Shown here: one piece after another, positions 8,786 to 36,991 of the stretch
Layout of the letters: each line of letters starts with the position of its first letter
Numbering within the stretch: the stretch's first letter is position 1
IMG/VR virus record: IMGVR_UViG_3300025093_000001
Direction: 5' to 3' (one strand)
DNA from: a virus
Taxonomy: Duplodnaviria > Heunggongvirae > Uroviricota > Caudoviricetes
DNA: 64,000 nucleotides
Position numbers and translations under genes: made by a program
Notes under the pieces: generated by a model
The model's input: the letters and a program-made list of their open reading frames with translations, nothing else
What the model was told of the DNA's origin: nothing
The model's database searches: none

Positions 8786-9542
8786 GTTCGTCTGGGTATA
8801 ACTCTTTAACGAGTTCACTTTGCCAATATTCTTTAGTATTAACATCCATGATGGTCAGCTTACCAGAAAAGCCAGCACCTGTATCTAGATTCCACACATT
8901 TGCTGCATGTATAGGGTCAGTTCTATTCCAGTTTATTGTACTAGTATGTCCTATAAAGATTTCCTTGTGTTTGGTAAATCTCTTTTCATGCTCCATAAGT
9001 GCGTGTAAATCAGCACCTTCTGCAAACTGAGCCAAAGACCATAAGTCTCTATCCCAGTAGTAATCTGATGTATATGCTTCATGACCAAGACCTTTTCTAG
9101 AACGAAATCCACCATGTACAAAACCTCTGTTTTGGTCGTCTATATAATAGTTGTGGAGCTTTCTGAAAAAAATTCTATGGTCATCATTGATGTATCCAGT
9201 TCTGATATACGAATCAATAGTAGCTTGACCACCTTGTTTAGTCCATATTAGAGGTTGTTTCCCCATATGAAGCCAGTCGTGACACCATTGGTCGTGATTA
9301 CCCTTAAGGAATATGTGGTCACCAGGAAGTTCAATTAAGAATTGAATTAACTCTGCTGACTCAGACCAACCGTCTACATAATCTCCGAGAAAGATTAGTT
9401 GATCTTCTTCTGGATTTACTCCAGCTCGCTCTAGACACTGATGGAGGGCACGAAGCCCCCCATGAATGTCTCCAATCACAAATCGCCTACTCATAATTTG
9501 ACGTATTTTCTGTTGTCCTTTCCACCATACCAAAGAATCCAA
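8775..9542 (-). CDS. Ser/Thr protein phosphatase (calcineurin-like metallophosphoesterase, lambda-PPase/ApaH-like)
   Basis: GDIHG, GDYVDGW and GNHD motifs in canonical order. Confidence 0.75.
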   Translation of the reverse strand: MDSLVWWKGQQKIRQIMSRRFVIGDIHGGLRALHQCLERAGVNPEEDQLIFLGDYVDGWSESAELIQFLIELPGDHIFLKGNHDQWCHDWLHMGKQPLIWTKQGGQATIDSYIRTGYINDDHRIFFRKLHNYYIDDQNRGFVHGGFRSRKGLGHEAYTSDYYWDRDLWSLAQFAEGADLHALMEHEKRFTKHKEIFIGHTSTINWNRTDPIHAANVWNLDTGAGFSGKLTIMDVNTKEYWQSELVKELYPDEHGR

Positions 9543-10708: not shown

Positions 10709-11664
10709 ATTGTGACTTGTCCCTTTTGTTCGTACTCAAACTTAGGATAATCCCAAACGTTTTCTTTTAAATGCCATGCCAAAGTATCAAGGCAATTCAT
10801 CCATCCTTCATAATATACACCATCTATTTCGCCACCAAAAGCTCCTACTTTGAGAGCTTCATCTGATAGTGTGTATATCATAGGAGCACCTATACGAGTA
10901 GTGCTTTCTACGAGAATCTTAAATGGTAAAATTGTATAGTCTGGATATGCAAACATCAATGCTGCAGTATAGAAAGCAGCTTGGAAGTCATACCTAAATT
11001 TATAAATAGCTTCATGAAACTTACTGGTATAACCAGCAGTAGTCTTCAAATCCCATGGTTGAATTGTTTTGTTCTCTTCATCAATTTCAATGAAATCAAG
11101 AAGAGACTTTAATTCAATATCATAGTCTTTGAATCTCCAATAGATAGCTACTTGTGTTTCTGTAGCTGATGGTATCACATGACTTGTAAAAGGATGATTC
11201 ATGATAGACTCACAAATCTCATGTGCCTTAGCTAAAGTTTCACTATCTATAACAGTTTTTCCTCGGGCTTTGACTTTATTCTCAAAGTATTGTGCATTGT
11301 CTATTACAAACTTAAGCCTAGTAGCTCTTTTATTCTTTAGTCTGTATCCTTGAGCTTCAATAATGTTATGTAGAAGCTCCTCTTCAATGACTCCTTGATA
11401 GTCAAAATTTCCCAGTACTTCACAGTGTTCGTAAAATTCATCCCATATAGACTTTATTGCTGTAGGTATACTGTTATCCTCTAGCTCAATAAATCTTTCC
11501 TCTAGCTCATTAGGAGTTAGAAGAATACAATCCACGAGGGAGCCCAGCGTTAAAGCTGAACTCTCCCCAAATGGATTATATAGTTTATATGACATTGGAT
11601 GATTACAAATTTTCTTGAGTCTAGTCTGTGAAACTGACTCACTTTCGTAATACTCCTTACTCAT
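10705..11664 (-). CDS. PD-(D/E)XK family nuclease (RecB/Cas4-like fold)
   Basis: WDLKTT (D-x-K) followed by a QxxxY motif (FQAAFY), characteristic of the PDDEXK_1 / RecB-family nuclease core. Confidence 0.55.
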   Translation of the reverse strand: MSKEYYESESVSQTRLKKICNHPMSYKLYNPFGESSALTLGSLVDCILLTPNELEERFIELEDNSIPTAIKSIWDEFYEHCEVLGNFDYQGVIEEELLHNIIEAQGYRLKNKRATRLKFVIDNAQYFENKVKARGKTVIDSETLAKAHEICESIMNHPFTSHVIPSATETQVAIYWRFKDYDIELKSLLDFIEIDEENKTIQPWDLKTTAGYTSKFHEAIYKFRYDFQAAFYTAALMFAYPDYTILPFKILVESTTRIGAPMIYTLSDEALKVGAFGGEIDGVYYEGWMNCLDTLAWHLKENVWDYPKFEYEQKGQVTI

Positions 11665-13528: not shown

Positions 13529-15536
13529 GTTCTAAAATTTCATATGACATGATAATTAACTTAAGTTGGTCTGTTTCTGTATCAGTAAATACATACCCAC
13601 AGTCATCTCCAATCTCTTGAACTTTCTTGGCTATATAATACGCTGCTTCTAAAAGCTTTGTACTAATCTCATAACCTACTTGGTCAGGTTCAAATAGACC
13701 CATACCTTCTGCATAAGTTTGAACTAGCTGTTCAGCTTGGTCAAGACTTTGTGCAATGGCAATTTCGTCCATATCTGTCCAATCAGAGTTTGTAGTCTCT
13801 GTGAACTTATCCCAACTCTCATTGATAAGGGCATCAACACGCTCCTGAGCTGCTTTCTCCTCTTCTGCACTAAGCTCTGAAGACTGTTGGAGCATACCAT
13901 CCGTAGAGTTCTGCCCAGAAGTCGTAGGTGTCTTCTTCTCTACGGGCTTCTCCTTTTTTGGCTCTAACAATTCTGAAAAAATGTCTTTGAAATCTAAGGA
14001 AGCCTTAGTTTTTTTATTCAAATCCATTCCTTTTAAGAAAGTTTCAAAGAAAGGAGTTCTACTGTCCACAGGTTGTACATCTACCAAGTATCCATTATTG
14101 TACTCAAAGGTGTATAAACTAAATTCTGGCTTAAACTTAGCACTGAAAGTTAGTTTACCGTCCCAAGCAGGATAAGAAGATACTCTATAGTTATCATTAG
14201 TTGATGCTACAAAGGTGATGGGATATATCGAACATTTAGATAAATCACCTAAACGTGTACTATTCTCATCTAACATTGCATTAGCATCATTCATGGCCTC
14301 AAAGTCCTTACACATAATACCTTTTGCAAAGTAATATAGTGAAGCATTGAGTTTATCCTTCTTCTTATTCTTATTGTACTTTTTGCGGAAATCCCTCAAA
14401 CCTTTATTGGCTACAGCTTGAGTCATATACCATCCAAGTTGTTCACCATCTTCGCGAAGAAGCCATATACCATTGATTAAATGACCATTACGGAAGTAAC
14501 GTCCGCAACGGTAATAAATCTTTCCGCCTACGATATGGCTGCCCACGAAATATTCGTTTGGGGTTAAAAGAAGTTGATGAGCCTTGGCTGAACCTGTGAA
14601 AGTGCTGATAGGAATTTGACGTGCTCCTGAATGAGAAACTCTGGCATTAGTTCTCGTAGAAGGAGTTGTTGTTACAGCTGTACTGTTACGAGCATATGCT
14701 GTACTTAATTCCTTGCCTCTTTTTACTTTAAGCTCATTGATAACTTCACCACCTTCAAAAGTAAGGATAGTGTTGTTAGGAACTTCTTTGATGTCTTTAA
14801 GTCCAGCGAACTCAAATGGTTCTTTCATAGAAGATAGATATACACCAGTAACCTTACCTCTACTATTCACATACTGAACATAGTACAGCGGTCTTTCTTC
14901 ATCATCACCCGCTGCCCCCTTAAAGGCATAGAGCCTATCAGGATTATTCGAGTTATAGAAGATAAGAGCTGCAGCTCCTTTATACTCAGACAGAACCTTG
15001 TAGTTCTTATCATGATATAAGCGGTAAAGGAGAGCTTGTGAATCCATATTGACTGTTACCTCTTCAGGAATTTCAATATCCTTTGTAAGGTCTCTCCAGT
15101 CTATGAGACTTCCATTATGTGCTCCAATAAAGTTGTATCCAACCTCTTCATCTGGAACTTCTGGGTCATCAGTATCACACCCAAACCCAAAAGGGTGGGC
15201 ATTCTCTTTAGTGTGTGCACCTACAGTTGCTTTCCTTGTGTGAAGGATTACATTGAAGGTCTTTGTCATCTTAGGAAAGTCAAAGTCTTTGACAAAATTC
15301 CTAAAACGTGCAATACTTCCTACTCCTACATCAATGAAATTGTTGACAGCAATTCCGCAAGAGTGTATACCTCTTTCTTCATTGTATTGTCCAATAACTT
15401 TGAGAAGGAGTTCGTTTGGCTTTACTTTACCATTATATGCGCCTAATCCGCAACTTAACACATTACTCTTACCCTTAAATATTAGGAGTGAAATAAAATT
15501 CACTAAGGCAAAAGCAAAGATAAATAAACTTAACAT
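13494..15536 (-). CDS. Class II (Ntn-type) glutamine amidotransferase domain protein with an about 28-aa hydrophobic N-terminal propeptide and a long C-terminal extension
   Basis: ..LSCGLGAY.. places the nucleophile Cys at position 29, followed by GATase-II-like spacing (HSCGIAV, HTRKATVG, NGSL); 680 aa. Confidence 0.55.
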   Translation of the reverse strand: MLSLFIFAFALVNFISLLIFKGKSNVLSCGLGAYNGKVKPNELLLKVIGQYNEERGIHSCGIAVNNFIDVGVGSIARFRNFVKDFDFPKMTKTFNVILHTRKATVGAHTKENAHPFGFGCDTDDPEVPDEEVGYNFIGAHNGSLIDWRDLTKDIEIPEEVTVNMDSQALLYRLYHDKNYKVLSEYKGAAALIFYNSNNPDRLYAFKGAAGDDEERPLYYVQYVNSRGKVTGVYLSSMKEPFEFAGLKDIKEVPNNTILTFEGGEVINELKVKRGKELSTAYARNSTAVTTTPSTRTNARVSHSGARQIPISTFTGSAKAHQLLLTPNEYFVGSHIVGGKIYYRCGRYFRNGHLINGIWLLREDGEQLGWYMTQAVANKGLRDFRKKYNKNKKKDKLNASLYYFAKGIMCKDFEAMNDANAMLDENSTRLGDLSKCSIYPITFVASTNDNYRVSSYPAWDGKLTFSAKFKPEFSLYTFEYNNGYLVDVQPVDSRTPFFETFLKGMDLNKKTKASLDFKDIFSELLEPKKEKPVEKKTPTTSGQNSTDGMLQQSSELSAEEEKAAQERVDALINESWDKFTETTNSDWTDMDEIAIAQSLDQAEQLVQTYAEGMGLFEPDQVGYEISTKLLEAAYYIAKKVQEIGDDCGYVFTDTETDQLKLIIMSYEILEHVEGNKFKEDK

Positions 15537-16366
15537 TATGATTTGTGATTGAGTCCGTATTTATGATTCATGAGTTGCGGTAAGTGTTCGAGATACATCA
15601 AAGTAGTCTTCTCACCAAATGAAGGAGCTGAATTAGTCTCCAAGATTTGAAAGTCTCCTTTAGTGTTAACTCTAACATCAACTGCTCCGACATCAAGCCC
15701 TACCGCAGATAAAGCTTTCTGTGATTGTGCTACAATTTGGCACCAAGTAGTTGGTTTATTGAATTGTTCAGAATCCACATTAGTGAATTTTACGAAATTC
15801 CCATCCTCATCCAACTCTTGTTCTTTCTCTGTAGCCCAGATACAGTTGTTTGAATTGAAATACCATCTCTCTTCAGCATCAGATTTTCTAAGCTTACGGC
15901 AAGCATAGAAGCATCCAAGTGCTGAAACATGTAAACGATACTCTCTAGCTCCTGAAAAGTATTGCTCTAAGTAGTATCCTTGAGTATTACCATTAAAGAA
16001 TTGTAGTAATTGCTCTTCATTCTCAATGAACTGCATACCCCGTCCCCTACTACCAAGAACTTTCTTAGCTACTAATGGATATTTTTCAATCTCAGCAGTA
16101 TTAAAAGGGTCTGTAATGGTGTACATCTTTGGGCTTTGTATCTTACCATTCTTGAAAGCTTCTTTCATCTTCAGTTTATTTGAAGATACTTTAACAGCTT
16201 CAACGGTATTGATTTCGTGAGGAACATCTACCTGCGTAGTGCTGCCAAGACGAAATACAGACTTTCCATCAAATCTTAAGGAAGGATTCTTTCTTAAAAC
16301 TTCATGTGATGGGTGTCTTGAACGTATTCTAACGTATTTAAATTTAGGCGTCTTCATAGTTTCCAC
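15536..16366 (-). CDS. ATP-grasp ligase (RimK-like)
   Basis: PLVAKKVLGSRGRGM glycine-rich ATP-binding loop and downstream YYLEQY...EYR motifs. Confidence 0.65.
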   Translation of the reverse strand: METMKTPKFKYVRIRSRHPSHEVLRKNPSLRFDGKSVFRLGSTTQVDVPHEINTVEAVKVSSNKLKMKEAFKNGKIQSPKMYTITDPFNTAEIEKYPLVAKKVLGSRGRGMQFIENEEQLLQFFNGNTQGYYLEQYFSGAREYRLHVSALGCFYACRKLRKSDAEERWYFNSNNCIWATEKEQELDEDGNFVKFTNVDSEQFNKPTTWCQIVAQSQKALSAVGLDVGAVDVRVNTKGDFQILETNSAPSFGEKTTLMYLEHLPQLMNHKYGLNHKS

Positions 16367-16697
16367 TTTCTACAACAGGGAGACCTCTTTCTCCATCCAT
16401 AAAATACAATTCTGCAGTTGTTTCTTCTCCAGAATCAAGTATTACTTGTATGGGTCTTCTTTGATACCAATTTGGGTGTCCCTCTAACCCATCTACTCTT
16501 GGTACATCTTCTTCAGGAACATCGAATACTTCTACATGAATATTAGATGTAGGCTTATGTGATGATACAAAAGGTATCCCACTAGCATACATAGTATACT
16601 TCTCCTTTGTTTTTCCTGCGTCAACAAACTTTGAGTCTGCTAATAAGCGATTGTTTCCCCAACCTCTTCGCAGTGTTCCATATACAGCAATTCTCAT
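16344..16697 (-). CDS. Gamma-glutamyl cyclotransferase (GGCT/AIG2-like)
   Basis: N-terminal YGTLRRG motif and downstream ...LEGHPNWYQR, typical of the AIG2/GGCT fold. Confidence 0.7.
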   Translation of the reverse strand: MRIAVYGTLRRGWGNNRLLADSKFVDAGKTKEKYTMYASGIPFVSSHKPTSNIHVEVFDVPEEDVPRVDGLEGHPNWYQRRPIQVILDSGEETTAELYFMDGERGLPVVESGNYEDA

Positions 16698-17449
16698 GCG
16701 TAATCTGCAATTAATTCCCTAGCCAATTCTGGCTGTTCAAATGCCTGAAAGACTTCATTGTCATCAGGTAAAAATATTCCTTCATTGTGGTAGTCTTCGA
16801 CAATCCTCTCCACACTATCCCATACCCACTCAATCTTGTCGTTACTTTGTAACCATTCACATGAAGGGGTGCGATACTCAAAACCATAAGAGGTAGTTCT
16901 ATAAGTGCCTGGAGCACCATAGATATCTCTCCTAGAGAGTTCTGTACGAGGTTCAGCAGCAGCCAAAGGCAATCCAATATGCAGGTCAAAGAGCTTAATC
17001 ATCTTTTTGAGATTATTAATCTTCATTCCTACATGAATATGTCCACCTGCAAATCTCACGTTTGGTGGGAAGTCATCGGGACATAACAGCATAATGTTGT
17101 ACATGTTCTCTTGTGGAGCACATCCAAACATATTAGCTGTTGGGAATTGCAATGCTTTATCACTGAACACTGCCGAGTTGTTGAACCTGATTTCTACCTC
17201 TTCTGGTAGTTTTTGTTGGATAAATTCAATAGCTTGGTTCAAATTAGCTACAAAATCCAACTTTGTACTTGCTGGCGGGATGTTAAATTCAACCATTAGA
17301 TTATCACATAATACGGCATAGCCTGGTGCTAAATCTTCTGGCTCATCCTTAGTGCCATGAAAATACAACTCGGAAGGAACATACATCTCCAGGTCTGTAT
17401 TATACAGAAATGCTTCTGGGTCTGCTCCTAATGTGAATATATTATTCAT
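16694..17449 (-). CDS. Second COOH-NH2 ligase (phiEco32-like / GCS2-like GS-fold ligase)
   Basis: GADPE N-terminal motif and FAGGHIHVG HxH motif. Confidence 0.5.
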   Translation of the reverse strand: MNNIFTLGADPEAFLYNTDLEMYVPSELYFHGTKDEPEDLAPGYAVLCDNLMVEFNIPPASTKLDFVANLNQAIEFIQQKLPEEVEIRFNNSAVFSDKALQFPTANMFGCAPQENMYNIMLLCPDDFPPNVRFAGGHIHVGMKINNLKKMIKLFDLHIGLPLAAAEPRTELSRRDIYGAPGTYRTTSYGFEYRTPSCEWLQSNDKIEWVWDSVERIVEDYHNEGIFLPDDNEVFQAFEQPELARELIADYA

Positions 17450-21569: not shown

Positions 21570-22309
21570 ATGATTTTGGCTTGTGTTGTTATTTTATGGT
21601 CACTAGACCATCCATCAGTTGATTGCTTATACCTCTCATCATTAGCTTCTCTAAGAAATTCCTCTACTGTAAGACCAGTTTTAATTGATTTTGCAGTAAC
21701 ATTAGAGTGATTAAATTCCTCAGTAGTGAATACTCGCTTTTTGTGTAAACAATTATCCCATAGAGTTAGTAAAAAACTCATAGGGTCATGCTTTTCAACA
21801 TCGAATTTAAACAATCCTTTAAAAAACTTAGCATTCTGAAACAAGTGTCTACGACTCTTTCCAGTATCTCTAGGCATATACCAGAGACTTCGAAAGAAAT
21901 TCAATAAAATCAAGTTATGTTTATAACTAAGTAAAAGCTTGTACTTAATCCATACTGTTGACTTTTGAGTGATTATTCCTATTTGATTGTTATAAAGCGT
22001 ATCAAGATGTTTTCCCCAGTTATCGTTAAGTTTATACTCAGGCTTAAGTTTGTTAAAATCTGGTTCAATTATCTCACATGGTGTGATTAAATTGATGATT
22101 TTAACTAATTGTTCAGTTATCTCTGGAGTCTCTCCCCCCTTAGTATGAAAAAGGATTTCCTTCCTATCATCACAATGTCTTTTTATAAAAGAAAAACACG
22201 CTTGTGTTGCAGGATTTGAATCAAACTTTCCCTTTTCATTTAATACACCACCTTCTACTCTAAAATTCCCAGCTTTGCCCATACGAATCTTATTAAAGAA
22301 TTTCATCAA
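21560..22309 (-). CDS. Hypothetical protein
   Basis: ORF. Confidence 0.45.
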   Translation of the reverse strand: MMKFFNKIRMGKAGNFRVEGGVLNEKGKFDSNPATQACFSFIKRHCDDRKEILFHTKGGETPEITEQLVKIINLITPCEIIEPDFNKLKPEYKLNDNWGKHLDTLYNNQIGIITQKSTVWIKYKLLLSYKHNLILLNFFRSLWYMPRDTGKSRRHLFQNAKFFKGLFKFDVEKHDPMSFLLTLWDNCLHKKRVFTTEEFNHSNVTAKSIKTGLTVEEFLREANDERYKQSTDGWSSDHKITTQAKIICH

Positions 22310-22949
22310 ATAGATACTTGTTGATGATGTAACCCATTACTCCCATGACAATTCCATCACTGAGTTGTCTTTCTGGATGTCCTTGAATAGCCAAAGAGTT
22401 ACTTTTTGGATAGTAAACTATCTCAGGCTCATTTTGAACAGTATAGGTTTCTCCATCACCACGCTCATACAAGGAGCTACGGCTTGGTTCTGCCCAAGCA
22501 ACTAATTCATATTCATCCTTTGGTAGATTATATGGATACATCATTTGGTGATGTGTAGAAGTCATGGCAATTTTAACGCCATTATTCTTCTTATTGAATC
22601 TAACTGAGTGCTTTCCAACCATTGCGTGACTGGACACATTTTGCACTAGTTTTCCACCATTCATGACTGTAAGAAACTGCGAACCTCTACAAATACCCAA
22701 CATAGGTATTTTCATAGCTGATGCCATAGCAAAGACTCTTGCCTCTAATTCATCACGTTTTGGGTTTGCATATGTTGTTGGGTGAAACTTTTCACCATAG
22801 TACTTAGGTGACACATCAGCACCACCAGTAAACAGAACTAAATCTGCCTCAGTTAGTACTTTAGTATCTCTAGGCTTAATATCTAAGCCATTTAAGACAC
22901 CTATATAGCTTAAAGCTCCTCCTACAACATAAACGTTCAGTTGTTCCAC
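22293..22949 (-). CDS. Class I glutamine amidotransferase-like hydrolase (peptidase C26 / PuuD-like gamma-glutamyl hydrolase)
   Basis: GICRGSQ nucleophile elbow (Cys) with downstream His...E catalytic positions. Confidence 0.65.
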   Translation of the reverse strand: MEQLNVYVVGGALSYIGVLNGLDIKPRDTKVLTEADLVLFTGGADVSPKYYGEKFHPTTYANPKRDELEARVFAMASAMKIPMLGICRGSQFLTVMNGGKLVQNVSSHAMVGKHSVRFNKKNNGVKIAMTSTHHQMMYPYNLPKDEYELVAWAEPSRSSLYERGDGETYTVQNEPEIVYYPKSNSLAIQGHPERQLSDGIVMGVMGYIINKYLFDEIL

Positions 22950-25099: not shown

Positions 25100-27076
25100 T
25101 TAATGTTTCCAATAGGAAGTTATTTGAGGTTCAGCTTGTAGAGGAACTACTTTACAGTAGTAGTTACCTGCATTTTCCATGCATACTTTTAAAAGATTTG
25201 AGACGTGTTCAGCAATTTCTTCAGGGCATTCCACTACAATCTCATCATGAATGAAGTTACAAATCTTAACTGTAAACAGTAAGTTCTGCTCTATCAACTT
25301 GTTGAGAAATAGTATACCTGCTACTTTTGTGATACTCGCTGAAGTTCCTTGAATAGGATAGTTCAATGCTTTTCTCTCAATTGCAGCTTTCTGTCTATAA
25401 AAAGTGCTAACGACTGGTCTTAACTCTCTATGAAAGTATTCATCGTCTTTTTCTTTATGGTATCTGTACTCATCCCAAAATTCTGGAGTGAGTTTCTCTT
25501 GTTCTGTATCAAACCATTGCTTATCAAAGAATAGTTTGGATTGGTCTACCTCATTAAATAGAATATATCCCTTTTTCCATAACTCATCTTTCTTCTTCTT
25601 GAAATAGTCATTTAGACCTGGGAAGGCATCAAAGTAAGCTTTGTATACAGCTTCTCCCTGTTCAATAGGAATAGATAAATTGTTTGATATTGTCCAACCA
25701 TTACCACCATAGTTAATGGCAAAACCTGCAGCTTTAGCAATCTGTCTTAATTCAGGATAATTGGCTTTAATCTCCTTAAGAGATAAACCTTTCAACTCAG
25801 GGAATATCTTAGAAGCAACAAAACTGTGCATATCTCCAAGATTCTGTGCATAGAAATGCAACAATCCCTCATCCATAGACTGATTGGCTAATACAATCTG
25901 CTCTTGTCCTGAATAGTCAGCTACAACAAGAGTATTACCCTCTTCTGCAACAAAGCAACTTCTTACTTCTTCTGCAGCAGGGATATTTTGGAAGTTTAGA
26001 GTCTGTACACCTGTACTAGAATCTTTACCACCAGAACTGAGTCTCATAGTGTCCATTATTTGAGTAAACTGTGTATGCAGTCTACCAGAGGCAGGATTAA
26101 TCTGGTCAGTTACATTAGTACCATAAGTAGATACTTGTTTTTGCAAACCTTTGTACCTAAGATACACAGGTAAGATAGGATGTTTATCCTTTTGAGGTCT
26201 TATTACAGGGGCCTCGATACTTTTGGATTTCTTTCCATCTTTTTCAACTATTAGGTCTAAACCTAAATCCTCAAAGAAGGGAATGACTTGGTGAGAACTA
26301 TTCCAATTGATAGCAGAACCAACAGGTAGGAACATGTCCAACTGTTTTTCTTGATACTTTGGAAAATCTCTTATGATATAATCATCCAACTCTTTTTCAA
26401 CCTTCTCTAGCTTTTCAATATTCCTTTTGTATAGAGATAACCACTTCTCCTTGTCCAATTTAAATCCACAGAATTCACAGTAAGCAAGTACAGGACAATA
26501 GGAATTTTGAAGGCGAATAGCCCTCTCTAAACCTAGTCTCTTTACTTTCTTCATCTGCTCTGTGCGAATTTGATTAAGATACTTAACATCACGTCCCGCA
26601 TAAGTAATTACAGTGTCGTCTAGCCCACGGTAATGAATTTGACCACGCACTTCCTTACTAAGCTCAACGTTGCAGTATCTTTTAACCAAGGCATCAAGAC
26701 TCATTCTAAGGAATCTTGGTTTACCTAAATTAAGCATTCTTTCCACGAGATATGTATCATACACTTTAGTGCAGACAATATTATTCATGAATAAGAATCT
26801 CAAATCAAATTTTGCATTTTGAAATAAGTATGTTTTATCTGACTGTTCAAAAAACTCTTTATAATCAGCAATAGGATAATCCTTTTCACTAATTACAAAT
26901 TGAGTATTTCCGTCACCTATCTGCCAACACAATAGATTTTTAGTCCAAGGGTCAAAACCCTCAGTCTCTGTGTCAACTTCAACAAACTCCTTATCTTCAA
27001 AATATTTTAATGCATCTTCAATAGATGCAAGGGGAATGGACTCTCTCTTCTCCGAATCTCCTACAAAATATATCAC
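25100..27076 (-). CDS. polA: Family A DNA polymerase with 3'-5' exonuclease domain
   Basis: Exo motif EVDTET; motif B RQIAKAAGFAINYGG; motif C IHDEIVVE. Confidence 0.85.
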   Translation of the reverse strand: MIYFVGDSEKRESIPLASIEDALKYFEDKEFVEVDTETEGFDPWTKNLLCWQIGDGNTQFVISEKDYPIADYKEFFEQSDKTYLFQNAKFDLRFLFMNNIVCTKVYDTYLVERMLNLGKPRFLRMSLDALVKRYCNVELSKEVRGQIHYRGLDDTVITYAGRDVKYLNQIRTEQMKKVKRLGLERAIRLQNSYCPVLAYCEFCGFKLDKEKWLSLYKRNIEKLEKVEKELDDYIIRDFPKYQEKQLDMFLPVGSAINWNSSHQVIPFFEDLGLDLIVEKDGKKSKSIEAPVIRPQKDKHPILPVYLRYKGLQKQVSTYGTNVTDQINPASGRLHTQFTQIMDTMRLSSGGKDSSTGVQTLNFQNIPAAEEVRSCFVAEEGNTLVVADYSGQEQIVLANQSMDEGLLHFYAQNLGDMHSFVASKIFPELKGLSLKEIKANYPELRQIAKAAGFAINYGGNGWTISNNLSIPIEQGEAVYKAYFDAFPGLNDYFKKKKDELWKKGYILFNEVDQSKLFFDKQWFDTEQEKLTPEFWDEYRYHKEKDDEYFHRELRPVVSTFYRQKAAIERKALNYPIQGTSASITKVAGILFLNKLIEQNLLFTVKICNFIHDEIVVECPEEIAEHVSNLLKVCMENAGNYYCKVVPLQAEPQITSYWKH

Positions 27077-27754: not shown

Positions 27755-28023
27755 CTTACTACAGTTATGAGGTGAAGCATTTTAGTTCGGAATTTATGTA
27801 GTACATTGACTTCATAATCCAAATTAAGCTCCTTTCTCAGTTCCTTGTTAGAGGTTTTCCAAATAGGCACAATTACATGGCTTTTCTTTCTACCTCTTGT
27901 GATTTTTCTGTTGTTGCCTGTAGGCATCTTATATCTACGAAGCCTCCGCGAGGGAAACTCTTGGCGTAGAATCTGTCCTGGCCTCAGGTGCAGAATGTCT
28001 TCATGTGTTACGGTCCTGTTCAT
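27745..28023 (-). CDS. Small basic protein
   Basis: ORF. Confidence 0.3.
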   Translation of the reverse strand: MNRTVTHEDILHLRPGQILRQEFPSRRLRRYKMPTGNNRKITRGRKKSHVIVPIWKTSNKELRKELNLDYEVNVLHKFRTKMLHLITVVRWR

Positions 28024-28591
28024 TGAGATTGTAAATATGAACTCCTAAATCATTCCCTGTTCTAGGGTTATTGAACGTATTGACGAGTTCCCATTCATTA
28101 CGTTCCAAAATTTTTTGTTGTGGTGTATTACTGAGGATAGTGGTACACATTAAACATCCAAATCCATTAGCTCTCGCTATGTCTTTACGAAGTTCATTAA
28201 GAATAGTACCAATACCTTTACCTCTGTACTTTGGGTCTACAGTAGACCCTGTAGAGACAACTATTCCACAACATCCGGGCATTTGTCTCATGGTAAATTC
28301 TGAAATTACTTTACCACTAAGAGTGAGTAATCTGAAAGTCTGCCTACTTGAGTAATCATACCCATAGTTTAACTTAAAGGTATAACCATTCCCGTAATCT
28401 CTGACAACAGCCCAGCCGTGCCCAAGAATATCAGTTAGTTGTTGTTCATAAGGTTTTAAGACATCTTGTCTTTTACTTGTAACCTGTTTGACAACTCTTT
28501 TGAGCTTTCTAAGCCCTCGATTTAAACTAGCCATTTCATAAGTTTTTAGTGGACCTGAGGGGAGTCGAACCCCCGTCCAGCGTAACATCAA
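28001..28591 (-). CDS. GNAT family N-acyltransferase
   Basis: RGKGIGTILNEL (R/Q-x-x-G-x-G acyl-CoA binding motif) after a beta strand. Confidence 0.55.
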   Translation of the reverse strand: MMLRWTGVRLPSGPLKTYEMASLNRGLRKLKRVVKQVTSKRQDVLKPYEQQLTDILGHGWAVVRDYGNGYTFKLNYGYDYSSRQTFRLLTLSGKVISEFTMRQMPGCCGIVVSTGSTVDPKYRGKGIGTILNELRKDIARANGFGCLMCTTILSNTPQQKILERNEWELVNTFNNPRTGNDLGVHIYNLNEQDRNT

Positions 28592-28954
28592 ATATACAAA
28601 TTATACATGCTTAAAAATTAGGGCTGAATCTGGAATTCAACCTCCACCAGGGTAGTGATAACAGCTAAACCTACGGGTCTTTCAAGGATACTGTCACTCC
28701 AAATTTATACTCTCCTTATCCTTTTTCGAGTTAAATTTTACCCCTTTTCTGTTCCTAGGTAGGGATAACACCTGCTGCATTACGCTACTGCTACTTCACG
28801 CTCTGCAACTACCATAGTTGAGATGAACTCTTCTACAGTAGTGTTAGATAAACTGTTTCCAGTTATTTGTTAATTTACGAGATTCAAGTCAGAGTAAATC
28901 AATCTGACTGCATGTTCATATACTCTCAGATACCTGTCAATTCCAGTCAGGCCC
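28550..28954 (-). ncRNA. ssrA: Candidate tmRNA (ssrA-like), about 405 nt
   Basis: Minus-strand 5' end GGGCCUGACUGGAAUUGACAGG closely matches the tmRNA 5' consensus GGGGCUGAUUCUGGAUUCGACGGG. The 3' end GGACGGGGGUUCGACUCCCCUCAGGUCCA gives a T-arm plus a 7-bp acceptor pairing with the 5' end, including a G3-U wobble. CUCGUAAAU and an internal about 30-codon open frame ending ..VAVA-UAA sit where a tag ORF is expected. Confidence 0.5.
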
Positions 28955-29361
28955 TAAAATAGTTTCTTCTGTAAACTGGCTTCAAAGCCGTATAAGAAGA
29001 TTTTCACATTTAATCCAGCTAAGTTAGCCAGATTTATCATGTGTTTTGTTCCTTTTGAACGTCCGTCCCAAAATACTACCAATGCATCAGCATAGTCAGC
29101 CATTTGTTTGTTACGGATATATCCTGCAGATTTACCATGTTTATCCCAGTCTGCAGGAAACTGACGAAGGGGAATAGAATGCTCTTTGGCAAACTTTTCC
29201 CCCAATCTATCAGCTCCTCTTGCAGTGCCTGAGACAATCTCACTTATCTCAGCAATATCGTAGTTATTTAACAATATATGCTTAAGATGAGCATAGTCTG
29301 TAAAGTCTCTGCTACCTGCAATTATGAGTTTCATTCGAAAGGTATTGAATACTCTTGACAA
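28954..29361 (-). CDS. SLOG-fold protein (DUF2493/YspA-like, LOG/DprA-related Rossmann fold); predicted nucleotide-binding
   Basis: IIAGSRDF...GxARGAD...ALVVFWDGRSKGTKHMI pattern. Confidence 0.5.
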   Translation of the reverse strand: MSRVFNTFRMKLIIAGSRDFTDYAHLKHILLNNYDIAEISEIVSGTARGADRLGEKFAKEHSIPLRQFPADWDKHGKSAGYIRNKQMADYADALVVFWDGRSKGTKHMINLANLAGLNVKIFLYGFEASLQKKLF

Positions 29362-30290: not shown

Positions 30291-31007
30291 TCAATACACA
30301 TTTGTATTGGCATCATGGTGGTCTACTTCGACTAATTCTTTATTACGAAGTAGTTCCATAATATGAGAATAGCTAATAGGACCATAATATCCAAATTGGT
30401 TGAAAATAGTATCAACTCCTACATCCATAGCTTTACGTTTGTAATAGTCTGGTGTAGTGTGATACATAGAATTGTGGCAATGACCATGAAGATGTATCCA
30501 TCCTTTCATATGACCATTCCACACAAAGAGTGGATAGTGACAAAGTACGAAATTATACTTCTTAGCTTTTTGTTGACGACCATTAACAATTGGTTGAGCC
30601 TCTACAATTGTCAATTCAAGTAATTCATGAACTGATTTGAAAAGATGTTTATAGTGAGCTCTAATCCAATGGTCATGGTTTCCAAATACTAAATGCACAT
30701 TTTTACATAGAATTCGGTCAAGAAAATGAGGAATCTGAGTCTTATCACCAAAAGCAAAGTCACCTAAATGAATAAGAGTGTCATTGGGTTGAACTCTTTT
30801 ATTGATTTCCTCTAGAAGAAGAGTATTCATATACTCTAGATTTTCGTTCATATCACGCATACCACCCTTTTTCCACTTACTGATACCTTTTACAATATTA
30901 GTATGGTTAAAATGAGTATCTGATGTAAACCAGATATTACCATCATTTGTATTTAATCGCATGAGGATTGTTTTGTAGCTTGTGATACATATCCAATTGT
31001 CTTTCAA
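30291..31007 (-). CDS. Calcineurin-like metallophosphoesterase (candidate polynucleotide 3'-phosphatase)
   Basis: SDTHFNH, GDFAFGD, GNHDHW and HGHCH motifs. Confidence 0.7.
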   Translation of the reverse strand: MKDNWICITSYKTILMRLNTNDGNIWFTSDTHFNHTNIVKGISKWKKGGMRDMNENLEYMNTLLLEEINKRVQPNDTLIHLGDFAFGDKTQIPHFLDRILCKNVHLVFGNHDHWIRAHYKHLFKSVHELLELTIVEAQPIVNGRQQKAKKYNFVLCHYPLFVWNGHMKGWIHLHGHCHNSMYHTTPDYYKRKAMDVGVDTIFNQFGYYGPISYSHIMELLRNKELVEVDHHDANTNVY

Positions 31008-31416
31008 GTATCTCTTTGCCTACCTTACGAATACGTAGGGTCTGACGCTCTAATAGAGTACCCATATCAGCATCGAAATACTTGTATTCCACATCAATTC
31101 CCTTATCTTTCAAGACATCATATCTTTTAAGGTATTTGAGTTTTAGATGTGTAGCATCAACAATGACTGTTTTGTTTAGATTAAGAGAGCTGTGTATCAA
31201 TATATTTTCATATATTGTAACTTCTTTCTCTCTTGCAGGAAAGTCATGTCGAAGGTAATACTCTTTAATGTTATCTTCAAGATAACCAAAGAGTAACTCG
31301 CGAATCTTGTCCCTATTGACAATAACAACATTGTTAGGGTCTTTTATATGGGCCTCATGAGCCCAGGTAGATTTACCTGAGCCCGAAGGTCCAATAAGTA
31401 TGATTAACTTAGGCAT
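30943..31416 (-). CDS. P-loop NTPase/kinase (candidate polynucleotide 5'-kinase)
   Basis: Walker A GPSGSGKST at the N-terminus; about 157 aa; adjacent to the phosphatase and RNA ligase. Confidence 0.55.
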   Translation of the reverse strand: MPKLIILIGPSGSGKSTWAHEAHIKDPNNVVIVNRDKIRELLFGYLEDNIKEYYLRHDFPAREKEVTIYENILIHSSLNLNKTVIVDATHLKLKYLKRYDVLKDKGIDVEYKYFDADMGTLLERQTLRIRKVGKEILERQLDMYHKLQNNPHAIKYK

Positions 31417-31811
31417 TATGACATTACGGTTTGTAACTGTTTTAAAACTTCTTTCAGATGTTTGTTATTATCATAGATACCCATGAAGGCATCTTGAGAG
31501 ATATTTTGTCGTTCAAAGAGATTCTTCACAATAAAAGAATCGCTAAAGAACCTAGATTTACATTGAGTAAGTACCTCTGCAAACTCACCATCTGAAGTCA
31601 TAAGTGTACAAAGATAACCATCATTTGTCTTCTTTAGAAGAACATATGGATGATTGAAGATTGGATGCATAAATATATCACCAACTTTGAATTGTTCAGG
31701 TGTACCAAGATGTTTATCTTTTGGAAGAGACTGTATCCAACGAAACAGTTCATCTCTTGTAGGTAAATTTTGCATCTCACGCAATTTCTCTAATAGGTCA
31801 TCACGTTTCAT
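31416..31811 (-). CDS. Hypothetical protein
   Basis: ORF between the kinase and ligase. Confidence 0.4.
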   Translation of the reverse strand: MKRDDLLEKLREMQNLPTRDELFRWIQSLPKDKHLGTPEQFKVGDIFMHPIFNHPYVLLKKTNDGYLCTLMTSDGEFAEVLTQCKSRFFSDSFIVKNLFERQNISQDAFMGIYDNNKHLKEVLKQLQTVMS

Positions 31812-33115
31812 GCGGTATCCTCAATATTAGATTCTCCTGCATCAAGTTGTTTAGTCTCAAATTCAAGAAATTCAAAGCTTTTCAACTTATAAATCTCATA
31901 TTCATAGAGTCTTTCAACTCTGAGACATATACCTTCAGCAGGAACCTTGTTGTTACACCTAAAACATCTTTCACCATTAGCATAGTCATCCTCTAAATTA
32001 GAGATGAATTTTTCATGCCAATACTCACCAGTATGCAGTTGAGGATATAAATCTCTCGCTTTACCTGTAAAATACCTGTAAGATGGATTCAATCTGTTTC
32101 TCAAACAGAACTCAACTATCTGTGGTGTAGACAACTCCATAACTACTCCATTTGGATTAGTATAAGTTATTCTATACACTTCAAGTTTGTGTTCTCCTGG
32201 TCTGCAACCATAATCAAATGGTTTTTGAATGAAATTTCCTTCCTTATCATAGCCTATCATCTCTCCATAGAGAGTAAAGCCTTTAGGAATTTTGTATCCA
32301 ATCTCATCTTTGATGTCTTTCCACAAATCATAGCCATAGAAGTGGTCTTGTCCCTTTGGGTCTTCGAACTGTTTATTCTTAACTACTCGTCTTGAACCAT
32401 AGACCAAATCATACTCTTCTGTTTGTATCTTAACACCAAGATTAAGGAGTACTTTCTCAATCCAATTTAACTTCTTCTTTACTAGCACATTACTGACCCA
32501 CCACGAGGTTCCATGTGTCTTATAGGTAATAGAGATAGTATCTGATGGCTTGATATTAGACATGTATTTTCTGAGATTATCAGTATCTACATGTAAATGT
32601 ACTTGTCCCTCAATCAGTCTTGACAGGGCTGGTTTTTTGCCTTTTTTGTTAGGTGGTCCATCATGTTTGTTGACCTTTTTGATGTATTTCTTGAGAAGCA
32701 ACTTCTCATTGATAGTATCAAACTCAGTATTAACAAAATCTGATGGATTTTTATTGACACCAGCCCATTCAAATACATGATTAGCTGGTACAATATATCC
32801 CATACTCCTCTCACCTCTGAGGCTCATGGCTTTGACTCTACAATGCTTTTCAAAGAACCCACCTTCATCTGGTTCTGTATTGAGAGTCTTGTCTCTAAAA
32901 CTATTAGTCTTAGAAAGAAAGTCTTTATTAATCTGACACTCCACAGGAAAGTATACATAGATATCTCCATCTTTTGCTTTCATGTCAGTGATTACATTTT
33001 GAAAGTCTATGAGACAGGTTTGTAGCCTATCTGCATTAGAATGTTTCTGTAATCCCTTTAGTTTAACAACCTTAGCTAAATAGTTAGGGTTAAACTGGTC
33101 GCTTTTCTTGAGCAT
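31808..33115 (-). CDS. RNA ligase (Rnl2-like nucleotidyltransferase)
   Basis: Motif I YKTHGTS matches the T4 Rnl2 KIHGTN lysine-adenylate motif. Confidence 0.55.
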   Translation of the reverse strand: MLKKSDQFNPNYLAKVVKLKGLQKHSNADRLQTCLIDFQNVITDMKAKDGDIYVYFPVECQINKDFLSKTNSFRDKTLNTEPDEGGFFEKHCRVKAMSLRGERSMGYIVPANHVFEWAGVNKNPSDFVNTEFDTINEKLLLKKYIKKVNKHDGPPNKKGKKPALSRLIEGQVHLHVDTDNLRKYMSNIKPSDTISITYKTHGTSWWVSNVLVKKKLNWIEKVLLNLGVKIQTEEYDLVYGSRRVVKNKQFEDPKGQDHFYGYDLWKDIKDEIGYKIPKGFTLYGEMIGYDKEGNFIQKPFDYGCRPGEHKLEVYRITYTNPNGVVMELSTPQIVEFCLRNRLNPSYRYFTGKARDLYPQLHTGEYWHEKFISNLEDDYANGERCFRCNNKVPAEGICLRVERLYEYEIYKLKSFEFLEFETKQLDAGESNIEDTA

Positions 33116-33822: not shown

Positions 33823-33836
33823 TATTGTTTTTTTAG

Positions 33837-33922
33837 TGCAGGAGGAGGGAGTCGAACCCTCACGAACATTACTGCTCACAGGATTTTAAGTCCTGCGTGT
33901 CTACCAATTCCACCACTCCTGC
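33837..33922 (-). tRNA. tRNA-Leu (anticodon UAA), type II with long variable arm
   Basis: Acceptor GCAGGAG/CTCCTGC; anticodon stem CAGGA/TCCTG with loop CUUAAAA; T-arm GAGGG-TTCGACT-CCCTC; 86 nt. Confidence 0.6.
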
Positions 33923-34014
33923 ATACCACTAGAGAAAGTATTTCAACTCTCTGTAGGCGACTATATTTATCATCTATAATTATTAAATCCCTACGCCTGT
34001 GCGACCTAGTGTTG

Positions 34015-34088
34015 TACACCCAATAGGAGTCGAACCTATAACCTACAGCTTAGAAGGCTGTCGCTCTATCCAATTGAGCTATGAGTGT
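34015..34088 (-). tRNA. tRNA-Arg (anticodon UCU)
   Basis: Clean cloverleaf: acceptor ACACTCA/TGGGTGT; D-arm GCTC..GAGC; anticodon arm ACAGC-CUUCUAA-GCTGT; T-arm ATAGG-TTCGACT-CCTAT; 74 nt. Confidence 0.7.
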
Positions 34089-34607: not shown

Positions 34608-36086
34608 TTAAACCAAGGCTGCGACACGCTCCCTGATTTGGGTTAAAGTTGTTGGGTTGAAGAATAGTCCATCCTCATAGATTGTTTGGAGTTCCCCCTC
34701 TCTTTCTTCTAACCAACTTACTTGGTCTTTTAATACAAGACCATCAGCGGTTTTCACAACTTGAAGTAGTCCCTTGGCACTCTTTTTAGTTCCGTCATCA
34801 GTAATAGGGTCTTTGTAGATTTCTCTACCAATTACTTTTCCCTCGGCATCTGTAATTTCTACATAAGTTGCTTTCATAGCAAAACCAAAAGTGTCACGAG
34901 TGTTGAACTGGTAAGTAAAGCTTCCTATGCCCAGTACCACGTTAGTACTTGCAAAGCCTTTCTGTTCCAACCGTTGACATATTTCTTCAGCTCTTTCCAA
35001 GGTGATAGAGTCTCCATAGATTGCTCCAATCTTAGGATTTAGAACTTTGTATCCCTGCTCATTTACAGTTCCACCAAATTCATCCCAAAGGAGTTCAATT
35101 ACACCTTTGTGTTCAGGTAAAGTTTTCATGTCTTCTCGGTCATCCATTACAGTTCCACAAAGGATGTCAGCAGGATTACCAGAATCAGGACGAATGACAA
35201 TTTTACCATCTCTTGCAAGAATTTCATCATGTAATTCAGGCAAATAAGCTGTCAACACTTTCCACAAGTCCCATGTATCAGATACAATGGAGAGAATACC
35301 TTTAGGAAAGATAGACATAAGCCTACGAAATGTGTCAATTTCAGTTTCATGACCACCAGCACACATCACTGAGTGCTCGGTAGCATTTACTGAGTAAATC
35401 ACTCCATCAGGTTCACGATAGTATTTTCTGGCGCCATGTATTGTTGGCAAACTATCAGAACCTAAGAAGCTTGTTGCATGACCTAATCCTGAACTAATGA
35501 CAGCTTCGAGGGAGTCCATGCCTCTCATAGAGAAATCATGTCCTTGAAAATCCACAAAGCCGACATTATCAGCATCGGTCTTGAGTGCCCATTTAGTGAG
35601 TACTTTCTTGAACTCAAGGGCAATTGTTGCGGATGTAATAGGTTTCCACAACAAGTTGGAGATTAAAGTCTCCAGGAAGTTTGTCAACCAGAAGAACTCT
35701 TCATAAGTATTCTTAATGGTTAACACGGGTACACCAATGGGACACAACGTTCCTTCTTCCAAGGCTTTCATTTCAATAGGGAGAAAACCTAAATCCCACA
35801 GGGCTTCGATATGAGAGACATCATAATCCATACCTAGGTACATGGAATACTCGTCTTTAATCTCATTACAGACTGCTCTTTTGGGTTGATTGAAGAAATC
35901 ACGTTGAAAACCATCGTGTATTTGATGCATGACCATTTGGAGTCCAAAGACAACTACGCTGTCTATTCCATTTGGTGCATACTTATTGCTTCGAGGTGTA
36001 AAGTTGGATACAACCAAACTTGTTCCCTCTGGATACATAGGCATGTGACCTGTTTTGTACCCATCAGTTCCTAAAAATGGATTCAT
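34608..36086 (-). CDS. nadV: Nicotinamide phosphoribosyltransferase
   Basis: N-terminal MNPFLGTDGYKTGHMPMYPEGT matches the NAMPT family N-terminus; about 490 aa. Confidence 0.8.
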   Translation of the reverse strand: MNPFLGTDGYKTGHMPMYPEGTSLVVSNFTPRSNKYAPNGIDSVVVFGLQMVMHQIHDGFQRDFFNQPKRAVCNEIKDEYSMYLGMDYDVSHIEALWDLGFLPIEMKALEEGTLCPIGVPVLTIKNTYEEFFWLTNFLETLISNLLWKPITSATIALEFKKVLTKWALKTDADNVGFVDFQGHDFSMRGMDSLEAVISSGLGHATSFLGSDSLPTIHGARKYYREPDGVIYSVNATEHSVMCAGGHETEIDTFRRLMSIFPKGILSIVSDTWDLWKVLTAYLPELHDEILARDGKIVIRPDSGNPADILCGTVMDDREDMKTLPEHKGVIELLWDEFGGTVNEQGYKVLNPKIGAIYGDSITLERAEEICQRLEQKGFASTNVVLGIGSFTYQFNTRDTFGFAMKATYVEITDAEGKVIGREIYKDPITDDGTKKSAKGLLQVVKTADGLVLKDQVSWLEEREGELQTIYEDGLFFNPTTLTQIRERVAALV

Positions 36087-36991
36087 CTGTTATCAGGGTT
36101 AAAAAGTTCAATTACATTCAAATTATCAGGCTTTTCCTCAATAGTACCATCCTCATCAACAACATGCATATAGTAATCATATGTGCTATTGGTGGTGTAT
36201 ACTCTATCAAAGTAACGTACTACTGAATCTTTACCTAAGTTTTGTACAGTCATATGACTGACAGCCAGGAATAATCTTCCTGCATTTCTCTCTCGTAATA
36301 ATTTGGCTAAACCTTTAAAGGTTCCACCATATACGCAAATATCATCAACAATGAGTACATCCTTACCCTTAAAGTCATTGACTGAAAGAATTTGATGTAA
36401 CTTACCATCTACACGAGATTTAGACGCAGAGTGAACCTTACCTCCCCATCTTAGCCTTTTAACTGTATCCATAAGAGGCTTATAACCTCCTGCATCAGCA
36501 GCTAAAAGATGAACAAGAGGATACAGTCTTTCATTTACAGTTGTAATATAATGGTCATGTACCCACTCTGCAGGTAAATGATATACATTTATTGCTAAGT
36601 CTTGAAGTACTTTCTCAATGAAAGTATAATTCTTTAAGATTGCGACATTATTCAAACCCATTTCCACTGCTTGAGGATTGTGTGGATGATAAATAACATA
36701 AATATCTACATCTAAAGAATTAAGAAAATCAAGAACTATCTTGAGACTATAAGAATACCGCCCAAATCTTGAGTCAGCCTGTGCATCAATAAGACGAGGA
36801 AGAGTTACCTGTAGCTTTCTACGATTCATTGAATCATATTGTCTAAAAGCATCAACATACTGTGCTAATTGCCACAGTTGTTCATAGTTTTGGATGCGCC
36901 ATACTATCTCTGATTTTTTAGCATCATCAGTTCTGAAATAAGATGTACCATCAGGATAATTGTGCATCAATATAGGTTTATCACTCATCAT
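36083..36991 (-). CDS. PRTase-fold protein, ribose-phosphate pyrophosphokinase (PRPP synthetase)-like
   Basis: VLIVDDICVYGGT PRPP-binding loop at the position expected in Prs; about 300 aa; translationally coupled to nadV. Confidence 0.5.
   Translation of the reverse strand: MMSDKPILMHNYPDGTSYFRTDDAKKSEIVWRIQNYEQLWQLAQYVDAFRQYDSMNRRKLQVTLPRLIDAQADSRFGRYSYSLKIVLDFLNSLDVDIYVIYHPHNPQAVEMGLNNVAILKNYTFIEKVLQDLAINVYHLPAEWVHDHYITTVNERLYPLVHLLAADAGGYKPLMDTVKRLRWGGKVHSASKSRVDGKLHQILSVNDFKGKDVLIVDDICVYGGTFKGLAKLLRERNAGRLFLAVSHMTVQNLGKDSVVRYFDRVYTTNSTYDYYMHVVDEDGTIEEKPDNLNVIELFNPDNR

Follow-up and report, generated by a model that had tools for sequence, protein, structure and literature searches.

Probable RNA Repair Operon in a crAss-like Phage, Encoding an Rnl5-Type Ligase, a Stand-Alone Kinase, and a Metallophosphoesterase

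Introduction

The virus genome fragment analyzed here (Caudoviricetes; IMG/VR virus record IMGVR_UViG_3300025093_000001; a stretch of 64,000 nucleotides, hereafter the window) contains, in the interval 30291–33115, a cassette of genes for an ATP-dependent RNA ligase, a P-loop kinase, and a metallophosphoesterase (MPE). This locus raises the question of whether the three proteins jointly repair broken RNA, and to which enzyme classes they belong. Phage healing and sealing of ribotoxin-cut RNA is a classic counter-defence, and the presence of such a cassette is in itself unsurprising. An earlier reading made from the sequence alone, without database searches (hereafter, the sequence-only reading), had described the genes as encoding an Rnl2-type ligase, a 157-aa kinase, and a calcineurin-like phosphoesterase, i.e., the three activities of a healing-and-sealing system split over separate polypeptides.

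According to the results presented below, the cassette is probably an operon with which a crAss-like phage heals and seals RNA ends by means of three enzymes. Family assignments and conserved gene neighbourhoods bore out a healing-and-sealing set (5′-kinase, phosphoesterase, and ATP-dependent RNA ligase) encoded as separate polypeptides, and both the E-values obtained with hidden Markov models (HMMs) and the repeated occurrence of these genes together in other phages were far beyond chance. The chemistry predicted for the kinase and the ligase is indicated by strong homology and conserved catalytic residues, while for MPE it is the gene context that suggests a role in 2′,3′-phosphate healing. 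RNA is the putative target of the cassette, and tRNA is a plausible one.

Results

Organization of the Cassette

The interval 30291–33115 is part of a long series of genes on the minus strand. It includes four open reading frames (ORFs), the coordinates of which are given in Table 1. The three genes named in the sequence-only reading were all found on the minus strand; the fourth ORF, designated orf131 and located between the ligase and kinase genes, had been overlooked. As read from the sequence, the tetranucleotide ATGA is common to the stop codon of the ligase gene and the start codon of orf131, the pentanucleotide TAATG is shared in the same way at the orf131/kinase junction, and the kinase and MPE genes overlap by 17 nt. 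Stop/start overlaps thus involve all four ORFs, which therefore represent one transcription and translation unit, and the cassette is a single tightly coupled operon. A blastn search of the cassette DNA against GenBank phages returned zero matches, and relatives were seen at the protein level only.

RNA Ligase

The HMM comparison proposed in the sequence-only reading supported both an RNA ligase and a polynucleotide kinase: the ligase sequence matched PHROG 968 (“RNA ligase”) from end to end (E-value = 4e-56), and the kinase sequence matched PHROG 505 (“polynucleotide kinase”, E-value = 5e-31). In Pfam, only the N-terminal OB domain of the ligase was recognized (PF21189, “PHA02142 OB-fold”, residues 13–110, E-value = 5e-5), and in NCBIfam, the match to TIGR02306 (RNA_lig_DRB0094, DraRnl family) was limited to residues 16–208 (E-value = 1.7e-8, 33.7 bits). 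The protein consists of an N-terminal OB domain (residues ~1–145), a basic linker modelled with low confidence (residues 148–176), and a nucleotidyltransferase (NTase) domain (residues ~177–430). The NTase motifs were identified as I (KTHG, K199), Ia (SRR, residues 241–243), III (LYGE, E285), IV (EGICLR, E394), and V (KLKS, K410/K412). The string YKTHGTS, previously taken as motif I, was confirmed at residues 198–204, and the adenylation lysine is thus present as K199. Motif V is followed by only ~23 residues, with no C-terminal domain; the OB domain is of the N-terminal Rnl5 type, not a C-terminal one specific to DNA ligases.

The AlphaFold2 (AF2) model of the ligase had a pLDDT of 78. In the Foldseek search with this model, the best matches from the PDB were all NgrRnl structures, aligned over both domains (E-value = 5e-13, ~426 columns), while T4 Rnl2 and REL1 were aligned over the NTase domain only (E-values from 1e-7 to 5e-6, ~270–300 columns), as were the other ligases (1e-7 or worse). 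Comparison of a broad ligase profile (A3) with the PDB gave a consistent result, with an E-value of 3e-17 for NgrRnl and of 1.8e-6 for T4 Rnl2, the latter over residues 261–364 of the NTase domain only. In the A3 profile, residues K199, E285, E394, and K410 stood opposite K170, E227, E312, and K326 of NgrRnl, and all four were invariant among 22 diverse members of the ligase family. A phmmer search of the PDB with the single ligase sequence gave no match. A profile built from close homologues (A1) gave marginal matches only, and an insert located after motif I led to misalignment of this motif with T4 Rnl2; the broader A3 profile and the fold search resolved the discrepancy. Consequently, the ligase has the Rnl5 architecture (N-terminal OB and NTase domains without a C-terminal domain) and not that of Rnl2, in which a related NTase domain is followed by a C-terminal helical domain; the earlier assignment to the Rnl2 type was thereby superseded.

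Members of this ligase branch are ~430 aa in size, versus ~340 aa in known Rnl5 enzymes; one insert follows motif I, and another precedes motif IV. An invariant C-F-x-C motif was observed in close relatives of the ligase at residues 384–387 (31950–31966, minus strand), together with invariant C337 and nearly invariant C304. This motif is located in the low-confidence insert before motif IV, is absent from the NgrRnl-like short forms, and may be a metal-binding element. In three contigs of related phages (L058, L060, and L063), the ligase gene is split (~6001–8170), with its N and C halves ~0.75 kb apart, which suggests an insertion of an intron, intein, or homing endonuclease. The ligase family was represented in 437 records of cultured phages, 296 of which were mycobacteriophages, where it is annotated as an RNA ligase.

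Polynucleotide Kinase

The P-loop GPSGSGKST reported in the sequence-only reading was found at residues G9–T17 of the 157-aa kinase, including K15 and S16, and the protein matched AAA_33 with an E-value of 5e-17. The best solved relatives were Pnkp1 of the Capnocytophaga Pnkp1-Rnl-Hen1 complex (4xrp, E-value = 1.7e-9) and T4 Pnk (1ly1/1ltq, E-values from 2e-8 to 6e-8). Residues K15, S16, D36, R39, and R128 were aligned to K15, S16, D35, R38, and R126 of T4 Pnk; the kinase also has R124, and D36 is the predicted general base. Among 51 aligned kinases from neighbouring loci, the aspartate was present in every sequence and the lysine in 49 (two gaps), and the acceptor-binding arginine residues, which the kinase of the window possesses, were found in about half of the set.

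Matches to the kinase were detected by tblastn in 1336 GenBank phage records; in a sample of 25 matches, 22 were annotated as polynucleotide kinase and none as dNMP kinase. The matches are thus to polynucleotide kinases, not to dNMP kinases, and the dNMP-kinase alternative considered in the sequence-only reading was not supported. No HAD domain was revealed in any of the four ORFs of the cassette by the Pfam, PHROG, and NCBIfam scans, so the kinase stands alone; a fused kinase–HAD form is present in relatives, e.g., in locus L001 (DIDGT motif).

Metallophosphoesterase

The calcineurin-like phosphoesterase named in the sequence-only reading was recognized as a member of PHROG 547 (E-value = 3.5e-46). 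The longest reading of its gene begins with TTG at position 31007, and the starts of 19 aligned homologues pointed to ATG at position 30959 (222 aa), which is most likely the true start. In an alignment of 20 sequences, all metal-binding motifs were invariant (D14-x-H16, G66-D67, G93-N94-H95-D96, H141, and G159-H160-x-H162), as was the family-specific C-terminal D213-H214-H215. The AF2 model (pLDDT of 88) and the profile comparison revealed one clear relative with a solved structure, namely, Aquifex aq_1665 (1xm7; E-value = 1.4e-9 in Foldseek and 3.5e-11 for the profile versus the PDB). No match of MPE to the lambda phosphatase (1g5b) or to the phosphatase of CthPnkp (4j6o) was obtained by sequence or fold, and MPE is not of the lambda-phosphatase type found in bacterial Pnkp.

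The window includes a second metallophosphoesterase gene, located 21 kb from the cassette. Its product matched 1g5b (E-value = 1.4e-8) and 4j6o (E-value = 3e-4) over nearly the full length. Gp017 of Cellulophaga phage phi17:2, which is encoded upstream of the MPE homologue of that phage, was considered as a possible kinase and ruled out by zero similarity.

Gene Neighbourhoods in Related Phages

The gene neighbourhoods were analyzed in ~150 related phage loci, including 68 loci anchored on the ligase and 80 IMG/VR loci anchored on MPE; the partner kinase was sought within 6 kb of the ligase, and the partner kinase or ligase within 10 kb of MPE. A Pnk-type kinase was found in 31 of the 68 ligase-anchored loci, and in 16 of these 31 a HAD phosphatase was fused to it (T4 Pnkp type) or encoded in the adjacent ORF. 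In loci with a stand-alone kinase (L005, L045, and L068), the MPE gene directly follows the kinase gene. A “kinase-only” class of loci distinguished in the first pass proved to be an artefact of a narrow MPE profile upon inspection of L016 and L023, in which a 224-aa ORF is located ~0.5 kb downstream of the kinase gene; its copy in L023 encodes a divergent Metallophos protein.

In the MPE-anchored set, the kinase was present in 31 of the 80 loci, always on the same strand (within 20 bp in 15 loci and within 1.2 kb in 27); an OB-NTase ligase was likewise found in 31 loci, all on the same strand, and HAD in one locus. The closest relative of the cassette (L070) encodes an MPE with 56% identity and retains the order ligase–kinase–MPE, whereas in L071 the order is rearranged (MPE, kinase, Prs-like gene, NAMPT, cREC domain, and ligase). 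RlaP and a nucleotidyltransferase similar to poly(A) polymerase/CCA enzymes are carried close by in relatives. In phage Cjw1, the ligase homologue is located 0.8 kb from pseT, which encodes a characterized Pnkp, on the same strand.

ORF orf131

The sequence of orf131 matched zero families in Pfam, PHROG, and NCBIfam, and its family profile had zero matches in the PDB and Pfam. The family numbers 131 representatives at 50% clustering and has the motifs GDV-x2-H-x2-F-x-HP-x-V, LTS, and SRFF. A role of orf131 as a conserved fourth component was ruled out by its absence from the closest relative L070, where the ligase, kinase, and MPE genes are contiguous, and by the 17 IMG/VR loci with an orf131 homologue, none of which has a ligase or kinase gene within 6 kb. 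Thus, orf131 is regarded here as a passenger inserted in the operon and translationally coupled on both sides. The assumption of a MazF/PemK-like RNase, which was based on a resemblance of motifs (GDV..., [HR]P.V.L, and LTS), was not supported; in hhalign comparisons of orf131 with two MazF sequences, the probabilities were 9% and 1%.

Genomic Context of the Cassette

Two tRNA genes, mentioned in the sequence-only reading, were detected by both ARAGORN and Rfam (61.9 bits for tRNA-Leu and 71.5 bits for tRNA-Arg with RF00005) 0.7–1.0 kb upstream of the ligase gene on the same strand (Table 1). The tmRNA candidate was likewise recognized by Rfam 1.3 kb downstream of the MPE gene, on the same strand; ARAGORN did not call a tmRNA at this position. 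The tmRNA gene abuts the ORF of the YAcAr protein, and the long, TTG-started reading of a GNAT ORF (28001–28591) overlaps its 3′ end. The YAcAr/YspA SLOG family has been linked in the literature to NAD/ADP-ribose-derived signalling. Upstream of the cassette are the genes for NAMPT (492 aa; NAPRTase, E-value = 8.6e-40, and NAMPT_N), for a ribose-phosphate pyrophosphokinase-like protein (302 aa; PHROG 619, E-value = 9.5e-32), and, on the same strand, for a DUF3307 membrane protein. Taken together, tRNAs, genes for RNA repair and for NAD salvage, and a SLOG protein correspond to the “conflict” function set of large phages (PMC7824862). RlaP, a CCA-adding enzyme, cREC, Hen1, and a DNA ligase were not found among the window ORFs scanned, and the scanned ORFs of the minus strand gave no match to a methyltransferase family.

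Table 1. Coordinates of the features discussed in the text (positions are those of the window).
Feature	Coordinates	Strand	Description
ATP-dependent RNA ligase	31808–33115	−	435 aa; Rnl5 architecture
Lys199 codon of the ligase	32519–32521	−	Motif I, predicted AMP-accepting nucleophile; read from the sequence
orf131	31416–31811	−	131 aa; no family match in Pfam/PHROG/NCBIfam; between ligase and kinase
Stand-alone polynucleotide 5′-hydroxyl kinase	30943–31416	−	157 aa; kinase domain only
Metallophosphoesterase (MPE)	30291–30959	−	222 aa; aq_1665 (1xm7)/cd07390-type; putative 2′,3′-cyclic phosphodiesterase/3′-phosphatase
Second MPE	8775–9542	−	255 aa; PF00149, E-value = 2.6e-13; lambda-phosphatase/CthPnkp-phosphatase type
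Family A DNA polymerase	25100–27076	−	38–41% identity to crAss-like phages, 45% to a Leptolyngbya phage
tmRNA	28547–28954	−	Rfam RF00023, full-length, 78.1 bits (gathering score 47), E-value = 1.3e-28
YAcAr/YspA-type SLOG protein	28954–29361	−	135 aa; PF10686, E-value = 5.5e-15; between cassette and tmRNA
tRNA-Leu(TAA)	33836–33922	−	ARAGORN; Rfam RF00005
tRNA-Arg(TCT)	34014–34088	−	ARAGORN; Rfam RF00005
NAD-salvage pair (NAMPT and ribose-phosphate pyrophosphokinase-like)	34608–36991	−	Upstream of the ligase

The closest relatives of the family A DNA polymerase are those of crAss-like phages and of a Leptolyngbya phage (Table 1), and the window is therefore assigned to a crAss-like lineage. In several of these relatives, the DNA polymerase gene is split by endonuclease insertions. 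A ligase identical to that of the cassette is encoded on a 102-kb contig. A cluster of genes for enzymes acting on peptide or amide bonds was observed at 11657–17449 and 22293–22949 on the minus strand; it includes Amidoligase_2, a class-II glutamine amidotransferase, an ATP-grasp-like protein, GGACT (gamma-glutamyl cyclotransferase, E-value = 5.7e-22), a phiEco32-like COOH-NH2 ligase, and Peptidase_C26/GATase, which suggests a phage module for peptide tagging or small-molecule synthesis.

Discussion

Comparison with Known Repair Systems

The order of reactions predicted for the cassette is as follows. MPE, as its gene context suggests, would open and remove the 2′,3′-phosphate and leave a 3′-OH end; the Pnk-type kinase, judging from its strong homology and conserved catalytic residues, would move a phosphate from NTP onto the 5′-OH end; and the ligase, which belongs to the Rnl5 type, would become adenylylated at Lys199, pass AMP to the 5′-phosphate, and seal the break in its putative RNA substrate. 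By analogy with the Rnl5 enzymes characterized so far, this break probably takes the form of a nick within a base-paired structure, such as a tRNA or rRNA stem-loop.

The logic of a 5′-kinase, a 2′,3′-phosphoesterase, and an ATP-dependent ligase is that of T4 Pnkp with Rnl1/Rnl2, and the kinases are homologous. The cassette differs from the T4 system in that its ligase is neither Rnl1 nor Rnl2 and has an N-terminal OB domain without a C-terminal domain, its phosphatase is a binuclear metallophosphoesterase rather than a HAD protein, and the activities are encoded as three separate polypeptides. The mycobacteriophage Cjw1 system is similar in that the ligase belongs to the same family (34% identity over 98% of the length) and is encoded near a polynucleotide kinase-phosphatase in a phage that also carries tRNA genes; the ligase, Pnk, and tRNAs of cluster E phages have been described as tRNA-repair and counter-defence genes (PMC5511906). 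In Cjw1, however, the kinase is fused to HAD (DxDxT), whereas here it stands alone and is followed by the aq_1665-type MPE, and the two phages differ in host phylum and phage lineage, the one considered here being crAss-like.

With DraRnl and NgrRnl, the ligase shares the domain architecture, the fold, and the residues equivalent to K170, E227, E312, and K326, but it is ~95 residues longer, shows ~15% identity to NgrRnl in the fold alignment, and, unlike both enzymes, is encoded beside end-healing enzymes. The bacterial Pnkp-Hen1 and Pnkp1-Rnl-Hen1 systems (Clostridium thermocellum and Capnocytophaga gingivalis) likewise combine kinase, metallophosphoesterase, and ligase chemistry; in Pnkp1-Rnl-Hen1, the ligase is also a separate polypeptide, and Pnkp1 is the best PDB match of the kinase. 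They differ from the cassette in that the MPE adjacent to the kinase here is not of the lambda-phosphatase type, the ligase is Rnl5 and not Rnl4, and the kinase and phosphatase are unfused; no Hen1 was seen in the ORFs that were scanned. Both in structure and in sequence, MPE is closest to aq_1665 (1xm7; CDD cd07390 MPP_AQ1575) among solved proteins; this is a structural-genomics protein, and the likeness says nothing on the substrate of MPE; the phage protein differs from it by an extra beta-hairpin insert and the conserved C-terminal DHH.

By analogy, the cassette may be considered a functional equivalent of the Pnkp and RNA ligase of T4 and mycobacteriophages, while being a strict member of no known system. 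Phage homologues of Rnl5, the pairing of ligase and Pnkp, and the occasional use of calcineurin-like phosphoesterases are already on record; the last of these was noted in a survey of jumbo phages, where such enzymes occasionally replace HAD in RNA repair (PMC7824862). The cassette is therefore a modest variation on this theme, in which the kinase is unfused and an aq_1665-type MPE takes the place of HAD.

Alternative Explanations

A number of observations weigh against the assignment of the cassette to RNA repair, and the main competing explanation, which we consider unlikely, is that its substrate is DNA or RNA–DNA junctions instead of broken RNA. In this case, 5′-OH, 3′-phosphate, or damaged ends would be cleaned by the kinase and MPE, or MPE would trim flaps as a nuclease, and the Rnl5 ligase would seal nicks with ribonucleotide 3′-OH ends, e.g., after the processing of primers or in ribo-patch repair of phage DNA. 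Pnk kinases of the T4 family are able to phosphorylate DNA as well. The ligase branch and the aq_1665-family MPEs are biochemically uncharacterized, and the ligase score of 33.7 bits is far under the TIGR02306 equivalog cut-off of 151.15 bits, so that the ligase represents a divergent phage branch and not a DRB0094 equivalog. Characterized Rnl5 enzymes, the physiological substrates of which have been described as unknown, seal duplex nicks with an RNA 3′-OH strand and are feeble on single-stranded RNA (PMC4408790, PMC5397189); they accept DNA in the 5′-phosphate and template strands (PMC5397189), and the founding member, DraRnl, has a DNA-repair phenotype (PMC4408790, PMC5397189), aiding genome reassembly after irradiation (PMC5397189). 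The next fold neighbour of MPE after aq_1665 is a Pseudomonas putida single-stranded DNA endonuclease MPE from a nucleic-acid repair cluster, the MPE homologue of Cellulophaga phage phi17:2 is encoded between primase and DNA methylase genes, and the cassette itself is located ~3 kb from the DNA polymerase A gene in a window whose scanned ORFs include no separate DNA ligase. The endonuclease match is, however, marginal (E-value = 4e-3, TM ~0.4), and the DNA ligase may lie elsewhere, as the window covers 64 kb of a ~102-kb genome. Against a DNA role stand the immediate neighbours of the cassette (tRNA genes, tmRNA, and NAD-salvage genes), the addition of RNA-specific RlaP, a CCA-enzyme-like NTase, and cREC in relatives, and the pairing of the homologous ligase with the Pnkp of Cjw1, whose RNA end-healing activities have been characterized.

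RNA repair by all three enzymes has also to be weighed against a division of labour that we regard as less probable still, in which only the ligase and kinase repair nucleic acid and MPE merely shares the early-gene neighbourhood while performing an unrelated function, such as degradation of cyclic-nucleotide/phosphodiester defence signals or dephosphorylation of proteins or nucleotides. Degradation of signalling nucleotides has been proposed as a role of calcineurin-like phosphodiesterases of phages (PMC7824862). Members of the MPE family are found in 1313 GenBank phage records, no kinase is annotated beside MPE at either of the two cultured-phage loci inspected, 34 of the 80 MPE-anchored loci have neither a kinase nor a ligase within 10 kb, and 33 of the 68 ligase-anchored loci have no partner in the examined flank. 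Short members of the MPE family were found alongside a complete kinase–HAD Pnkp in four loci (L001, L002, L009, and L015); hence, MPE is not just a stand-in for HAD, and it may add to the role of HAD or have a different function. The second, lambda-phosphatase/CthPnkp-like MPE of the window, moreover, is an alternative candidate for the enzyme healing RNA 2′,3′-phosphates. An unrelated function is nevertheless opposed by the tightness of the pairing, with the kinase gene abutting or overlapping that of MPE in 15 of 31 loci, a distance of no more than 1.2 kb in 27, and a common strand in every case, by the survival of the pair through gene-order rearrangements (L070 and L071), and by the distribution of HAD, since the stand-alone-kinase loci without HAD carry MPE and only one of the 80 MPE-anchored loci contains HAD. 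A third possibility, which appears very improbable, is that the 157-aa P-loop protein phosphorylates small molecules (e.g., nicotinamide riboside or nucleotides) and is tied to NAD salvage. It is favoured by the NAMPT and ribose-phosphate pyrophosphokinase-like genes 3.5–6 kb upstream, by the L071 homologue, the gene of which adjoins the Prs-like gene in the vicinity of NAMPT, and by the breadth of AAA_33, with weak NCBIfam matches to several small-molecule kinases; yet the best matches in PHROG and the PDB were all polynucleotide kinases, the Pnk-specific aspartate general base was conserved throughout the aligned set, with the acceptor-binding arginines in roughly half of it and in the window's kinase, and this kinase domain occurs in relatives as a fusion with the HAD phosphatase of Pnkp.

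Significance

Two classes of enzymes healing RNA 2′,3′ ends have been distinguished earlier, namely, the HAD type, represented in T4 Pnkp, and the lambda-phosphatase-like type, represented in bacterial Pnkp. We suggest tentatively, and with somewhat less than even confidence, that aq_1665-type MPEs may constitute a third class, acting in a widespread three-polypeptide phage module with a stand-alone Pnk kinase and an Rnl5-type ligase. The tight and recurrent pairing of MPE with the Pnk kinase suggests a concrete activity for a very common phage family, of which aq_1665 is the only member with a solved structure, and the operonic tie of an Rnl5-clade ligase to end-healing enzymes, with tRNAs and a tmRNA nearby, provides a directly testable context. 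The region adds to the crAss-like and marine phages in which genes for translation rescue, RNA repair, and NAD salvage are clustered. If the proposed function is true, countering the RNA-cleaving defences of the host would be the first defined physiological role for Rnl5 ligases.

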